Shown: positions 7,855 to 59,257, counted from the stretch's first letter. The stretch is 64,000 nt of DNA from Eledone cirrhosa (GCA_964016885.1 OZ024742.1:56606001-56670000), one strand, 5' to 3'. Notes: generated by a model not told the origin, from the sequence alone. A program made the numbers and translations.

Positions 7855-8060
7855 AGTTTTAATATAGATGAGATTCTACAGGACTAGAACTGTTTCATTC
7901 TTGAGAAATCATCAGGAATCTCTGATGATTCCTGATAATTTCTCAAGATGAAACAGTTCTATTTCTGTAGAAATTCATCTATATTAAAACTTTTATACTC
8001 TGCTATGTATTGAGTAACTTACTGTGGTTACCTCCGATTCAACCCAGAATAACTTACCTA
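7855..8060 (+). mobile_element. PLE-type fold-back element, family A, in (TA)n
   Basis: Inverted arms 7855-7920 / 7927-7991 plus ~68-nt tail; homologous to 17738-17890, 17983-18145, 35090-35277. Confidence 0.8.
7870..7922 (-). ncRNA. Type I hammerhead ribozyme (family A)
   Basis: GAGAUUC-CUGAUGA-U-UUC-UCAA-GAA-U-GAAA-CAG-uucuaguc-CUG-UA/GAAUCUC: 7-bp stem I, intact core, GUA site. Confidence 0.85.
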
Positions 8061-8769
8061 TATATATATATATATATATATATATATGTAGATAAATCTA
8101 CCAAGAGTTTACGGTAGTGTCCAATCCATATATATATATATATATATATATATATATATATATATATATATATATATATATATATATATATATATATATA
8201 TATATATGAATGTGTGTATGTGCGTGCGTAAGTGTGTCGTGATGTATGTGTGTGTTTGGGAGTGCGTGCCTTTGCTCAATTTGACTTGAAATGGCAAAAC
8301 ACTATGAATATTTCCCTTACTCGGTTATTTTCTTATATACGTGTGTGCACGTGTCTCTGTGTGTCTGTGTGTTTGTGTGTATGTATATATATATATATAT
8401 ATATATATATCATAATCTATAAAGCTCAGTGTATGGACATTCTCTTTTGTTATAGAAATCTACGATATAGAATTTCTTCAATTGAAATTTACAATTCAGT
8501 ATTCGAAATAGCTTCGATTGCGTCTTGGCACATATAATTTTTTCAATTTCACCCACAATTACGCAAAAAATAGATAAAACTCAATATTTTACGATTGATC
8601 TCTCATTTAAACTGCTAAACCTTTCCATTACCATTCAAAATCTATACAACTTCATACTTTCTGCTACTTTCTCTTTCCAAGCTTGATGGTGATACTGTCC
8701 GTTTTACTCTCTCATATCATCTGCTACCTCTATCTACAACCCACACATTTTGCTACTTTCTCTTTTATA

Positions 8770-8996
8770 CTTCAAACTTACTGATTTATTTCCAAACGCA
8801 TACAAACACACACTCACTTCAAATGATAAAAAAAACATTTAAAGCAATTAAACAACGTGCGTGATTTATAACCACACTAACTTTTAGTTGCTTCAAACTT
8901 AATGATTTATTTACAAACACATACAAACACACACTCACATAAATTGATAAAAAAAAATGTAAAGCAATTAAACAACGTGCGGGATTTATAACCACA
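8770..8996. repeat. Tandem duplication, ~121-bp period, 2 copies
   Basis: cttcaaactta.tgatttattt...gcaattaaacaacgtgcg.gatttataaccaca occurs at 8770 and 8891. Confidence 0.9.
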
Positions 8997-9230
8997 AAAA
9001 AAGTAGAAACAATTATTACATTTCATACGAAACGACAATTATTCAAAAGCAACAGATACATTTATTCAACAACAAGAGATACATCTTTTTTAAAACCTGT
9101 CAACGAACATAGATTCTTACAGACTTTGAGTCGAATCGGTTTGAAATTGTGCAAATGTATAAACATGGAACATGTGCACACACACAACAACAACAACAAT
9201 CTGCCTGTTATAGATAATGATAAACAATAA

Positions 9231-9599
9231 TATCCTCTATGAGGTCACTAAACCTGCTAGAAACAGCAGCTAACTCTCCCCCTTATCACACCACTCCCTA
9301 CTGTCTTAAATTTAGAAAACACATATCCTCTATGAGGTTACTAAACCTGCTAGAAACAGCAGCTAACTCTCCCCCATATCATACCCCTCCCTACTGTCTT
9401 AAATTTAGAAAACATATCTTCTATGAGGTCACTAAACCTGGTAGAAACAGCAGCTAACTCTCCCCCATTCACACCACTCCCTACTGTCTTAAATTTAGAA
9501 AACACATATCCTCTATGAGGTCAATAAACCTGCTAGAAACAACAGCTAACTCTCCCTCATATCACAACCCTCCCTACTGTCTTAAATTTAGAAAACACA
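9231..9599. repeat. Minisatellite, 4 x 91-93 bp
   Basis: Unit tatcctctatgaggtcactaaacctgctagaaacagcagctaactctccc...tactgtcttaaatttagaaaacaca starts at 9231, 9324, 9415, 9507. Confidence 0.95.
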
Positions 9600-10429
9600 C
9601 AGACAACCATGCAGAACAACTCCATCGCAGCTCTGTTGTTCGGCTGGCATCGTCTACGCGCGTGTTGCGCAAGTTCTGTGAAACAATAAATTTCAACACT
9701 TTTTTGCACAGAGATAATATCCATAGGCGAAACTACAATTGTCACTGCTGGCACAGTTCCTGCTTCCAGGTCTGCAATTCATTCACCCAGTGCCTGGCAG
9801 ACAAAAAAGTGGTGCCATAAAATGGGTGGTGCAACCTAACTTTGGTAACTATTTCAGCGCATCAATGCTAATACTTAATTTTTGCTGGACCACCAATCGC
9901 TCTGTATAATCACCTCCTGATTATTACTGGAATTACTACAGAAGCAGGGAGTGCGTGGCTCTGATGATCGCCAAACATCATGAAACAGACTGCTAGCTTC
10001 TCTCCCTTCTTTCGCCGAAAAGAAATAAGTGACATAGTCACTACTTTAAAACCGATAGCGTATGGTCTTCAAAATGTTTTTAATTAAACATACGGTATAT
10101 TGCCAAATATACTATACATATATAATATATATATTTGTGACCGTATAGTTATATAATTGATTAAATATACTGCTTTTACTTTTAGGTCTCAATTTCACAT
10201 AGCAGGTTAGAAAGTGTTCTATGTAAGTTAATTGTGAAAGTAGGCCCTGCCATCCCAGTCTCTTGTGCATTGCTTCTTTCAGATATTATACACACTGTCC
10301 CTAGAATACGTAATTGTCTGTGAACGTCCCAATCCACTTGACACTAAGAACAATACACATTCAGGTAACTGTCCATTGGAAACAATAGTTAAGGACAAAG
10401 AATTCTGTCAGGCACGGACTACAATATGT

Positions 10430-11162
10430 CGGCGTTGTTGTTGTTGTTACTGCTGTTGTTGATATCATTGTTGTTGAGGTTGTTGTTCTTGTTTTCGTTG
10501 TTACGTCGTCGTCGTCGTTCTTAACGTTGTTGAGGTTGTTGTTGTTCTCGCTGTCGTTTACTTATGTCTTATACATTGCCGTTTTCCTCATAGTTGCTGT
10601 TGCAGTTGTTTTTGTTGCTGCAGTTGCAGTCATTGTCGTTGCTAATGTTGTTAGTGCTAGTGGTGGTGGTGCTGGTGGTGCTGGTGATGGTTGTGCTGGC
10701 GGTGGTGGTGGATGTCGTGGTGGTGGTGGTGGTGGTTGTCGTGGTGGTGGTGGTGGTGGTGATGGTGGTGGAGGTGGTGGTGGTGGAGGTGGTTTTGGTG
10801 CAGGTGGTGGTTGTTGGGATGGTGGTCGTCGTCGTCGTGATGGTGGTGGTGGTGGTGGTGGAGGTGGTTTTGGTGCAGGCGGTGGTTGTTGGGATGGTGG
10901 TGGTGGTCGTCGTCGTGATGGTGGTGGTGGTGGTGGTTTTGGTGCAGGTGGTGGTTGTTGGGATGGTGGTGGTCGTCGTTGTCGTGATGGTGGTGGTGGT
11001 GGTAGTGGTGGTGGTTTTGGTGCAGGCGGTGGTTGTTGGGATGGGGGTGGTCGTCGTCGTCGTGATGGTGGTGATGGTGGTGGTTTGGGTGCAGGTGGTG
11101 GTTGTTGGGATGGTGGTGGTCGTCGTTGTCGTGATGGTGGTGGTGGTGGTGGTAGTGGTGGT
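10430..11162. repeat. (GTT)/(GGT) trinucleotide-based minisatellite with a higher-order ~70-bp unit
   Basis: Five copies of ggttttggtgcaggyggtggttgttgggatggtggtggtcgtcgt..gatggt from ~10790 to 11160. Confidence 0.92.
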
Positions 11163-57009: not shown

Positions 57010-57131
57010 GTTCTGAAGAGCTGCTCCATAACATTACTTAAGTTACTTATCTTCCTCTGTACCAGATCAAAAATGATCTAATAATCAATTGATCCAGAAA
57101 CATTATATGTAGTAGCGAAACAATTGTAAAC
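57010..57131 (+). ncRNA. Hammerhead ribozyme candidate with ~85-nt insertion in loop II (family H)
   Basis: gtt-ctgaaga-gctgct...agtagc-gaaa-c.aatt.g-ta/aac. Confidence 0.65.
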
Positions 57132-57372
57132 GCACATTATTATTCCTTACATTAAACTACAATTACACTCTTTATTTCTTACATTAAACTATAACTATGC
57201 TTTAACTAACATCTTCCATGTGAATTTTGTGGTCTTGCTTTGTTTAACTAATGAATATATATATATATATATATATATATATATATATATATATATATAT
57301 ATATATATATATATATATATATATATATACGATATTAAACAAATGGAAACTATATTTATAAAACCATATTTA

Positions 57373-57434
57373 TTTCGTTATATATATTTCTGGGATATCA
57401 TATTAAAAATATGGTATGCCTTCCTCAGACAAAA
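57373..57434 (-). ncRNA. Minimal type I hammerhead ribozyme in the inverted pLTR of the Penelope-like element
   Basis: UUUUGU-CUGAGGA-(aggcauacCAUAUuuuuaAUAUGauauccca)-GAAA-UAUAUA-UA/ACGAAA. Confidence 0.75.
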
Positions 57435-57792
57435 TACAATATATAAGCTGTTTTATAAATAATTTTGACATACCTTAGAATAATGCAACTTCCATTTAAA
57501 AAGTTGATTTGGTAGTGAAACTGTTAGGACAGTTATATAGAAAGAAAGACGAAGAAAAACGAAGATGAAAAGAAGAAGATGAAGAGATGTATGTAAATAA
57601 AAAAGAAGAAGAAGATGAAGAGATGTATGTAAAGAAAAACAACAGAGCGAGATAGAGAGAAGGAGATATGGGAGAGAGAAATACATTGAGGAAGTGAAAA
57701 AATAGTAGGCAGCTTGGGGACAGATGATCATCGTATATGTGAGAGGTTAAGGAGGGAAGGGATACAGTTAAAATAGCCGACACATAAATCAT

Positions 57793-58712
57793 GTGAACTC
57801 TGTTCAAAAACGTATCTCTAGAATCTCTTCCAATAAAAATATTTTTGACGAAAAAGCCCAGTATTATAATGAAGCGTTAGCTAGAGCAGGATATAGTGAT
57901 AAAATTATGTACATCGATAATAGACAAACTAACCAAAATAACAACAATTTTAATTACAGTAACAACTTTAACAACTATAATAGAAAGCACTACAATAATT
58001 CCAAAAACCAGAAAAGAAATAGAACTAGAAATATAATATGGTTTGCCCCCCCCCCCCCTTCTCACTAAACATTAAAACCCACATCGCTAAACTATTTTTT
58101 AATGCTCTTGACAAACGCTTCCCTAGAACACATAAGTATCACTCAATTTTCAATAGACATACTATAAAATTAACGTACTCGTCCACCAAAAATTTAGCAC
58201 AAAATATTAATAGAATAAATAATAGGAATCTAAAACCTAGCCAAAATACCGAAAATTGCCTAAACAATATTCAAGTAAACAACTGTAACTGTAGAGATAG
58301 ATCTAAATGTCCGCTAAATAACAATTGCTTAGTTAAAAATATAATATACAACTGTAATGTTAAAACTGACTTAAATTCTTTTAATTATGTTGGTTCCACC
58401 TCGACAGAATTTAAACTTCGCTATAATAATCACAAAAATTCTTTCACGGATCCAAATAAAAAATCTTCAACATCACTATCAGGCTTACTCTGGCAACTTA
58501 AACATGATAAAGTTGGATATTCGATGGTTTGGAATATAGTCTCAAAAGGGATTCCTTTTAATTCCTCTTCTGAGACATGTGACCTCTGCGCGGAGGAGAT
58601 ATTCTTTATACTAAAATCTAAAAATTCCCTAAATTTACGAACCAATTTATTCAGCTGCTGCAGACATAGATTGAACTCAACTTTTAAATATAAATATAAA
58701 TTTAAAATGTAG
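57793..58712 (+). pseudogene. Penelope-like RT C-terminus plus GIY-YIG endonuclease, one frameshift in a poly-C run near 58050
   Basis: KRISRISS..F...YNEAL...GY; RNIIWFxPPFS; IFNRxTIKLTYS; CNCR..CPL..C; IIY...YVGST..FKxRY..H; CDLCxEE; LN; CRH. Confidence 0.9.
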
Positions 58713-59257
58713 TATAAAATGTAGTATATTTACTTAAGATATTTAACTATATATAACGAAATGTATAACGAAATAAATATGGTTTTATAAATAGAGTTTC
58801 CATTTGTTTAATATCGTAAACCTACTCCAAAAACTTTTGAGTGCTTTTATATCAGTTATAAAATATTTACTCGTTGTAACCCAACAATTTTAAATAAAAC
58901 TTTTGCATATATATATATATATATATATATATATATATATATATATATATATATATATCATAAGGGTGTGCGTTTCTAAATACACATATATATTTATATC
59001 CATTTAAATCTGTATATGTGTATGACAGTGTGTCTGCATGTGTGAGTATATATATATATATATATATATATATATATATATATATATATATGCGTGAGGA
59101 TTATTGAAATATCAATATATAATAATCTCGTGAAAAATGGGATATGAACGTGTTGCAGTGTTTATTATCATATCGTTATTATATCATTATTACATCATTA
59201 TTTCATGGTTATTGTATGGTTATTTTACCATTATTATGTGAGGTATTATGACAAGGA

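Follow-up and report, generated by a model that had tools for sequence, protein, structure and literature searches.

What do repeat tails that cannot otherwise be aligned with one another have in common, and what might the shared part be for? This question is raised by a 64,000-nucleotide (nt) stretch of the Eledone cirrhosa genome (GCA_964016885.1 OZ024742.1:56606001-56670000; hereafter the window), in which several families of one-sided tails carry the word TGAGTRCT shortly before a (TA)n tract. The original prediction held this word to be a conserved cis-signal of unrelated families, acting for example as a binding or priming determinant of reverse transcriptase (RT) or as an initiator-like promoter element. 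We find that TGAGTRCT forms the 3′ side of a conserved stem-loop at the beginning of the one-sided tail, in which a first box (RCUC) is followed by an inner helix of variable sequence, a bulge of 1-2 nt and a second box (GAGY-N-C), and that the tail families bearing it are the 3′ ends of diverged lineages of Penelope-like elements (PLEs) of the Hydra type and their truncated stubs. The motif itself is confirmed; the 8-mer is no more than one allele of a single side of a two-part stem-loop (RCUC...GAGY-N-C).

In the window we count 12 matches to TGAGTRCT, against a mean of 3.57 (standard deviation (sd) 1.70) in 100 dinucleotide-preserving shuffles, none of which reached 12, and a (TA)n tract lies 24-62 nt downstream of 10 of the 12 matches when read in motif orientation. 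Five matches belong to family C (27215, 31235, 34664, 39572 and 56722) and two to family E (32183 and 56471), and those at 13580, 42340 and 58838 are singletons. The matches at 23000 and at 29694 (+), the latter without a TA tract, have no supporting context and are probably due to chance; the former is the reverse-strand site once placed at 22984-22992, which actually occupies 22993-23000 (-) and has neither an upstream box nor a match to the covariance model described below. Apart from that site, the coordinates first reported for the motif were right. Because motif-masked clustering collapses the 12 matches to about five tail families, these window counts overstate independence.

Outside the window, the word was counted in 99 stretches of 10 kb (990 kb in all) from the same 3.0-Gb genome, whose round-number coordinates had been fixed before any of their sequence was seen. 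TGAGTRCT was found 61 times in this sample, at about chance density, and a (TA)≥6 tract followed 19 of the 61 matches at a distance of 15-80 nt (mode near 45 nt), as compared with 6 of 61 in the reverse-orientation control and a mean of 1.24 (sd 2.46) for about 400 permuted words of the same composition. The sole competing permutation that was not a microsatellite word was TTGAGTAC, i.e. the same motif shifted by one base. TGAGTRCT is thus both enriched and constrained in position ahead of (TA)n, and the refuting condition named with the original prediction, a lack of enrichment or of positional constraint, did not hold. Raw k-mer enrichment upstream of (TA)n was swamped by microsatellite words and by the copy number of family C, and family-level counts were used in place of raw k-mer counts.

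Masking the motif before clustering revealed that many non-aligning tails share a second box, ACTC, the complement of GAGT, 11-30 nt upstream. The composite ACTC-N6-30-GAGTRC occurs 46 times near (TA)n and its reverse complement 11 times. Tails that cannot be aligned in any other part keep these boxes unchanged, in keeping with the earlier remark that the surroundings of the motif are not alignable between most families. Stacked on the box pair is an inner helix that differs by family (UACU/AGUA in C, GUCC/GGAC in E, CGGA/UUCG in D, and CAA/UUG or CAGUU/AACUG in the coding PLE), followed by a bulge of 1-2 nt before box 2, which reads TT in 9 of 14 family representatives. The spacing between the boxes ranges from 11 to 38 nt across families, and the flank of box 2 (N-C-T) is conserved asymmetrically.

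Three tests bear on whether the boxes and the sequence between them pair. The cleanest is a comparison of all 16 combinations NCTC...GAGN-N-C, among which only ACTC...GAGT (58 sites near TA; near/elsewhere ratio 0.70) and GCTC...GAGC (29 sites; ratio 0.56) were enriched near TA. The other 14 combinations, including the mismatched ACTC...GAGC and the wobble GCTC...GAGT, stood at background with 1-9 sites each and ratios of 0.01-0.11. As only A-U and G-C outer pairs are enriched, family B, whose tcgagccctc had been recorded as a weaker variant, is a genuine instance of the same module in its GCTC...GAGC form. In a 15-sequence MAFFT alignment, the inner helix was paired in 86.7% of cells, versus 76.2 (sd 2.4) in column shuffles (0 of 500 reaching the observed value) and 16-56% in controls with slid partners, and two-sided, compensatory changes were seen at three inner pairs (UA/CG, AU/GC/GU/UG and CG/GC/AU). 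An alignment of 74 matches gave 88.9% pairing against 79.5 (sd 1.0), again with 0 of 500 reaching it, this alignment being fitted by the model and biased towards the structure by construction. Finally, the stacked inner pairs of the 14 family representatives totalled 38, as against 18.8 (sd 4.2) when the interiors were shuffled (P=0.00025).

A covariance model, R1, was built from the stem-loop plus 6 nt on each side and contains no TA repeat. In 1.054 Mb it returned 74 matches at E≤10 and 53 at E<0.05, the latter representing 12 tail families. Fifty of these 53 lie 5-90 nt upstream of (TA)≥5, and the remaining three are family A variants with tails running into (CA)n. Each of the sites first reported for families A, D, E and C, the site at 42338 and the coding 'Penelope' copy was matched by R1. 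The module sites of the window are listed here, with R1 scores where a match was obtained.

58818-58850 (+): stem-loop of the coding PLE copy, ACTC-CAAAAACTTT-T-GAGTGC; 30.1 bits, E=0.0012; 109 nt past the end of the nuclease open reading frame (ORF)
39547-39584 (+): family C stem-loop; 34.3 bits
34652-34689 (-): family C stem-loop; 35.4 bits
31223-31260 (-): family C stem-loop with box 1 mutated and TGAGTACT intact; 16.5 bits, E=2.7
27203-27240 (-): family C stem-loop; 31.7 bits
56710-56744 (-): family C stem-loop; 31.1 bits
32162-32195 (+): family E stem-loop, ACTC-GTCC-cat-GGAC-T-GAGTGC; 29.1 bits
56459-56492 (-): second copy of the family E stem-loop; 29.1 bits
13552-13592 (+): family D stem-loop, inner helix CGGA/UUCG; 25.1 bits, E=0.02
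13050-13085 (+): additional stem-loop-like site, ACTC-N26-GAGTGC, absent from the original prediction; pattern match only, 77 nt before a repeat tract; its family partner at L081:4658 has E=9.1 with R1
18021-18053 (-): family A stem-loop; 33.6 bits
7991-8023 (+): family A stem-loop, variant GAGTAAC; 26.2 bits, E=0.011
42319-42352 (+): stem-loop of a single-copy tail family (the '42338' site); 35.2 bits
20584-20631 (+): family B stem-loop, GCTC...GAGCCC, with a G-C outer pair; 36 nt before (TA)n
34476-34523 (+): family B stem-loop, GCTC...GAGCCC; box pattern
34983-35030 (+): family B stem-loop, GCTC...GAGCCC; box pattern
6772-6819 (-): family B stem-loop, GCTC...GAGCCC; box pattern

Two further kinds of sequence resemble these sites. 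A (CA)n-tailed subfamily related to A carries the same stem-loop (L102:9242-9275, L081:3777-3810 and L049:7239-7271, loci outside the window being numbered with the prefix L), possibly following a shift of the target microsatellite. A separate repeat forms a tight hairpin, ACTCGTTTTCGAGTAC, with the same boxes and a 6-nt interior; its eight copies lie away from (TA)n at eight sample loci, e.g. L055 (-) 5458 and L014 (+) 2520. The idea of a palindrome or of RNA dimerisation, suggested by the self-complementary GAGTACTC, was rejected: the equally enriched forms GAGCACTC and GAGCCCTC are not self-complementary.

The elements that carry the module can be read from the coding copy in the window, which comprises the following parts.

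58029-58712 (+): C-terminal ORF of a Hydra-type PLE, with IWFAPP..., a CxCX5C linker (CNCRDRSKC), a GIY-YIG-like YVGST...R..H, CxxC and CxH
58813-58906 (+): one-sided 94-nt tail, from about 5 nt before box 1 through to the (TA)n tract
57329-57792 (-): inverted, 5′-truncated and tail-less copy of the 3′ region of the coding element (blastn against L142 2949-2495, 94% identity)

The inverted partner ends at the equivalent of L142:2949, 5 nt before the ACTC at L142:2955, which marks the start of the tail, and its outer end adjoins an (AT)n tract at 57255-57329. The nuclease ORF family is very large and young, with 71,797 first-look candidates in the genome, of which the 150 scored ones are 93-100% identical. 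One long copy, L142, contains a single frame of 749 amino acids (aa) with SDKTNN, RIRWRA, YRDD, CxCX5C, a GIY-YIG-like YVG...R..H, CxxC and CxH. The last two motifs, read by eye, are CDLC and CRH in both the window ORF and L142, and the family E ORF has CFCRKPEACP. Pfam returned no match for the window ORF at 58029-58712, and searches of the 749-aa ORF against Pfam and against the sequences of the PDB returned none.

As far as the Hydra clade is described in the parts of Craig et al. 2021 (PMC8557442) drawn on here, these elements share with it a single ORF, DKT, RW(K/R), CxCX5C, CxxC, CxH and, at the C-terminus, a GIY-YIG-like nuclease, together with (TA)n targeting, inverted 5′-truncated copies, a pseudo-long terminal repeat (pLTR) and a tail; 'almost all' members of the clade are said there to insert into (TA)n. 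The diagnostic combination of the CxCX5C linker with a C-terminal GIY-YIG, DKT rather than DKG, and insertion into (TA)n is present, with the N-terminal motif being RWR (RIRWRA) instead of RWK. No canonical hammerhead ribozyme was detected by Rfam in L142 2200-5700 (E≤10) or in the window (gathering score). By comparison of long copies, the full-length element measures about 3.9 kb including a 3′ region of about 1.5 kb, and is thus longer than the <3 kb described for the Hydra clade. Long copies have the classical PLE layout of an upstream partial copy (the pLTR) ending in the tail module, a short 5′ untranslated region, the ORF and the 3′ region.

Of 29 further nuclease loci (L113-L141), 28 contain a full nuclease match. 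Nine of the 28 reach the stem-loop, 1,321-1,390 nt past the ORF, and (TA)n follows 62 nt later in eight of them and 82 nt later in one; the other 19 end about where the stem-loop would be expected and are uninformative. The distance of 109 nt in the window, as compared with about 1.32-1.5 kb elsewhere, indicates an internal deletion of some 1.3-1.4 kb in the 3′ region of the coding copy (58713-58823). A second PLE lineage has family E as its 3′ end: in two copies in L050 a nuclease ORF stops 254-257 nt ahead of the E stem-loop, the interval being free of TA tracts, and this nuclease is 35% identical to that of the first lineage over 216 aa. Family C follows a nuclease ORF of 39% identity, again with no TA junction between, in 1 of the 11 C loci examined (L007). 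Coding partners are thus established for C, E and the coding PLE, and L102, with a nuclease of 54% identity, is a probable fourth link between a family and an ORF. Corresponding links for L030 and L086 were rejected, longer TA tracts lying between ORF and stem-loop there. Since three families are tied to coding copies with 35-39% identical nucleases, the families, originally called unrelated, are instead the 3′ ends of Hydra-type PLE lineages.

Where the module sits relative to the ends of insertions proved equally regular. The family C insertion at 39434-39625 consists of inverted arms plus an unpaired tail of about 79 nt, set between two (TA)n tracts, and this layout of two arms and one tail holds across families. 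Ends without a tail stop 7-9 nt before box 1 in six of eight placeable cases of family C (24 in the family), 4-8 nt before it in A (7/10), 10 nt in B (5/9), 6-8 nt in E (3/3) and 5 nt in the coding PLE. Tailed ends extend past box 2 by 46 nt in C, 41-46 in A, 36 in B, 37-43 (mode 38) in E and 54-63 in the coding PLE. The termini of insertions are thus grouped at two set distances from the module, 4-10 nt ahead of box 1 and 36-63 nt past box 2. An inverted copy of the body was found within 1.2 kb of 24 of the 42 tailed ends having enough upstream sequence; the outer end of this partner adjoins (TA)n in 23 of the 24, and in none of the 24 does the partner have a tail. The spacing of the arms varies from 26 to 375 nt, indicating that the inverted pair is made anew at each insertion.

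A recurrence of sequence at the two termini was also observed. In 3 of the 12 tail families, the ~15 nt leading up to the upstream terminus are found again at or close to the downstream one: at L071:5973-6105, AAGCTGTCTAAACGT and AAGCTGTACTAAATGT each end at a predicted start site (P=0.001); in family C (window 39520-39626) P=0.015; and in family E (L050:5860-5951) TTCTACC occurs at both termini (P=0.053). Nothing of the kind was seen in the other nine families, and the summed P is 0.025. Such a sequence is a possible second cue for two start sites.

The module is also legible in published elements of other phyla. The consensi in the supplement of PMC8557442 were read by eye at their 3′ ends and stand outside the statistics given above. 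Hydra-2_Amil from coral reads GCTC-TACAC-loop-GTGTA-TT-GAGC-AC and Hydra-2_Ajap from sea cucumber GCTC-TGCT-loop-AGCA-TA-GAGC-AC-TC, each about 27 nt from the 3′ end and downstream of the hammerhead that the authors mark as canonical. In Hydra-1_Ajap the module falls in the first ~30 nt of the consensus, consistent with a tail at the other end, and the inner helices of all three elements differ. A family of the present genome with seven copies, GCTC-TGTA-loop-TACA-TA-GAGC-AC-TC, closely resembles the sea-cucumber form. Among the published consensi, exact 8-mers gave few matches and none in the Hydra file, where line breaks in the FASTA format can hide matches, so that the module came to light solely through inspection of the 3′ ends; six tail words of the window were absent from the supplement. 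The main text of PMC8557442 contains neither 'stem-loop' nor 'hairpin' and does not describe the module. Nor was any description found in the literature searched, which included a 2026 preprint on PLE-derived retrozymes and extended to bioRxiv articles without their supplements. What is new here is a conserved, sequence-defined stem-loop in the Hydra clade; a PLE tail and an internal-initiation stem-loop were already known. As an uncertain observation, Naiad_Mmer from a clam, a member of a non-Hydra clade, has GCTC, a 6-bp inner helix, TT and GAGT-AC in a non-terminal position about 420 nt from the 3′ end of its consensus (PMC8557442).

That TGAGTRCT belongs to a conserved cis-signal is well supported, the module being specific in orientation and position, covarying, and present in published elements of other phyla. 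Because the covarying stem-loop follows directly after the upstream terminus, we take it, as the probable reading of these genomic ends, for a signal in the element RNA that positions the RT at two internal start sites. Of the two functions originally proposed, an RT binding or priming determinant would fit best, by analogy with the only PLE studied in vitro, rather than a promoter element. In this scheme, the stem-loop would be read as RNA and bound by the RT-endonuclease; cDNA synthesis would start at one site 4-10 nt upstream of box 1 and at another 36-63 nt past box 2; and extension of one DNA strand from each start site would yield an inverted pair bearing just one tail. The two clusters of genomic termini would then correspond to the two RT start sites described by Frangieh et al. 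for an Anolis PLE in vitro.

In that system (Frangieh et al. 2024, PMC11167929), the protein of PAc, a Poseidon element of Anolis, cuts AT-rich DNA, and both strands are cleaved and extended by it. Copying by the RT is initiated at two neighbouring internal positions of a stem-loop and without any homology to the nicked DNA; what lies between these two start sites forms the genomic tail, and a hammerhead just upstream is dispensable (PMC11167929). The anatomy described here matches what the PAc model predicts for another clade, namely two fixed termini, (TA)n targets and exactly one tail for each inverted pair. Shared with PAc are one-sided extension at insertion ends, two clustered termini, an AT-rich target, the use of both strands to give inverted copies, a stem-loop at the initiation region and a hammerhead upstream. 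The differences are those of clade (Hydra-type here, Poseidon in PAc), of tail length (70-94 nt here, 30-40 in PAc) and of the stem-loop itself, which has RCUC/GAGY boxes and lies in the 3′ region here, whereas that of PAc is AC-rich and lies inside the ORF. Moreover, the stem-loop here follows immediately upon the upstream terminus and precedes the downstream one by 36-63 nt, positions known from genomic ends, whereas those of PAc come from mapped RT starts.

A short conserved stem-loop near the 3′ end has a further parallel outside PLEs. Stringent long and short interspersed elements (LINEs and SINEs), such as eel UnaL2 and UnaSINE, possess a short conserved 3′ stem-loop located a few tens of nucleotides from an end in simple repeat. 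Like the module described here, it is common to elements that otherwise do not align, and it is regarded as the recognition signal of the RT. UnaL2 and UnaSINE belong to a different class of retroelement with an RT of another clade and are primed at the 3′ terminus of their RNA, whereas initiation here is likely internal and at two sites. More tentatively, the RCUC/GAGY stem-loop may anchor the telomerase-related RT of PLEs in a manner akin to the template-boundary helix of telomerase RNA, so that a bound dimeric RT-endonuclease would start cDNA just 5′ of the helix on one nicked strand and 36-63 nt 3′ of it on the other. Such anchoring, if true, would explain across a whole PLE clade, from cnidarians to molluscs, why each insertion forms an inverted pair having exactly one tail, and would define an RNA tag for PLE-mediated insertion that is both minimal and portable.

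Several observations weigh against an RNA signal and have to be set beside these arguments. In folds of whole tails, the stem appeared in the minimum-energy structure of 6 of 10 tails with no z-score below -1.72, and it is thermodynamically weak. Family B has no stacked inner pairs, and the inner helices of A and of the 42319 family are weak. Some of the representatives are relatives of one another (Pen-a/b/c; E and L030), which makes the shuffle-based P values overstate independence, and the tested structure was derived from the tested sequences themselves. Since the PAc stem-loop is AC-rich and inside the ORF, homology between the two elements is not established. Among the published consensi (PMC8557442, supplement in part), the module is absent from Hydra-1_Obim and imperfect in Hydra-1_Crog, and Hydra-1_Amil has only the string TTTGAGTAG. 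The CUC/GAG cores, in turn, never vary and are hence uninformative on pairing, and their invariance would fit sequence-specific recognition of DNA equally well. Inverted half-sites, GAGY on each strand, might accordingly be recognised in the duplex by a dimeric RT-endonuclease or its GIY-YIG domain, for example in homing into existing copies that builds tandems and pLTRs. Identical half-sites co-evolving with one protein would also be expected to undergo the coupled A-U/G-C change of the outer pair; recognition by the endonuclease of D. virilis Penelope is reported to have depended on the tail sequence, and for PAc a dimer is predicted (PMC11167929). We nevertheless regard a DNA-level signal as unlikely. 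The 11-38-nt range of half-site spacing between families would be hard for a rigid dimer on duplex DNA to accommodate, box 2 alone has the conserved N-C-T flank, and duplex recognition does not predict an inner helix that changes in sequence yet keeps its complementarity and its stacking on the outer stem.

Compensatory changes in the inner helix and the outer pair are equally unexpected of a promoter or initiator element of the pLTR. Full-length copies do have the module about 130 nt upstream of the ATG of the ORF (in L142 the module is at 2955-2975, in the upstream partial copy, and the ATG at ~3088), and transcription of PLEs is known to begin in the pLTR, where Craig et al. (PMC8557442) place the start sites of Penelope and Chlamys-3. 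The module is fixed to the insertion termini and not to the ORF, however, with ORF-to-module distances of 109, 254-257 and ~790 nt or ~1.32-1.5 kb across copies, and the majority of copies, being truncated stubs, have no sequence downstream that could be transcribed, which makes this function improbable. About as improbable is a functionless inheritance from one ancestral PLE 3′ end, of which the boxes would be the slowest-decaying remnant. The families are indeed related as PLE 3′ ends, and additional short matches, e.g. TTACC/TAACC, are common to some of the tails. Yet lineages with 35-39% identical nucleases, as well as other phyla, keep the boxes amid unalignable sequence, mismatched box combinations are down to background, and neutral decay makes no compensatory pairs. 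The idea we find hardest to credit is that the module derives from, or is an accessory of, a hammerhead, with ACUC...GAGU-H as helix III plus the cleavage nucleotide of a degenerate, duplicated or split ribozyme. Five published Hydra-clade hammerheads (File S2 of PMC8557442, as far as covered) have a helix III of ACTC/GAGT followed by A, T or C, so that module and ribozyme resemble each other in ACUC/GAGU, one nucleotide, a helix and a location in the terminal ~150 nt; PLE hammerheads occupy the same terminal region, and that of PAc is protein-assisted (PMC11167929). On the other hand, GAA precedes box 1 in none of the 15 aligned sequences, there is no adjacent CUGANGA with helix II, about half of the families have G at position 17, a G-C pair replaces A15.1-U16.1 in the B type, and Rfam reports no hammerhead at the thresholds given above. 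The loop of the module measures 11-38 nt, versus 1-3 in the hammerhead, and the consensi of Hydra-2_Amil and Hydra-2_Ajap carry a complete hammerhead and the module separately, about 55 nt apart (PMC8557442, supplement in part).

Two observations concern hammerheads in their own right. That the same four pairs occur in hammerhead helix III and in the outer stem of the module may be due to coincidence, to duplication or to a common preference in protein contacts. At L086:3264-3333 and in its sequence family, CUGACGA ... GAAAC ... GGUA lies about 45 nt upstream of a GCTC/GAGC stem-loop, and three helices can be drawn by hand; the hammerhead so drawn was supported neither by Rfam (L086 3200-3480) nor by the minimum-energy fold.

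The copying mechanism of PLEs is still largely unknown, and the first in vitro system, published in 2024, established internal initiation in one vertebrate element without defining a conserved RNA signal. A short, sequence-defined and covarying stem-loop that delimits the tail across many lineages of a single PLE clade, and that can be read in at least two other phyla, offers a concrete and mutable candidate for a recognition or initiation signal of the RT. Natural compensatory variants (A-U versus G-C outer pair, different inner helices) provide a ready test series, and the elements that carry them are very abundant in this genome, as the count of nuclease candidates indicates. For annotation, the module gives a simple rule by which the 3′ ends of PLEs and their truncated stubs can be recognised.

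Other features of the window are independent of the module. In a search at gathering thresholds, Rfam returned only a tRNA-like match in the window, and a permissive search was swamped by microsatellite-like microRNA matches. The tRNA-like match, at 39036-39093 (+) with 30.9 bits, heads a SINE (39100-39370) whose tail ends in (ATG)n; this tRNA-headed family is abundant (n=20 in the clustering) and is without the motif. At 10389-11310, long open frames overlap on both strands of a 147-bp tandem array rich in GTG/GGT; they have no match in Pfam and are probably a repeat artefact rather than a gene. Three adjacent open frames at 47484-50167 (-) match RVT_1 and zf-RVT and represent a decayed LINE-type RT unrelated to PLEs. 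A 228-bp tandem array at 43949-44481 consists of SINE-like sequence related to that of the tRNA-headed family.

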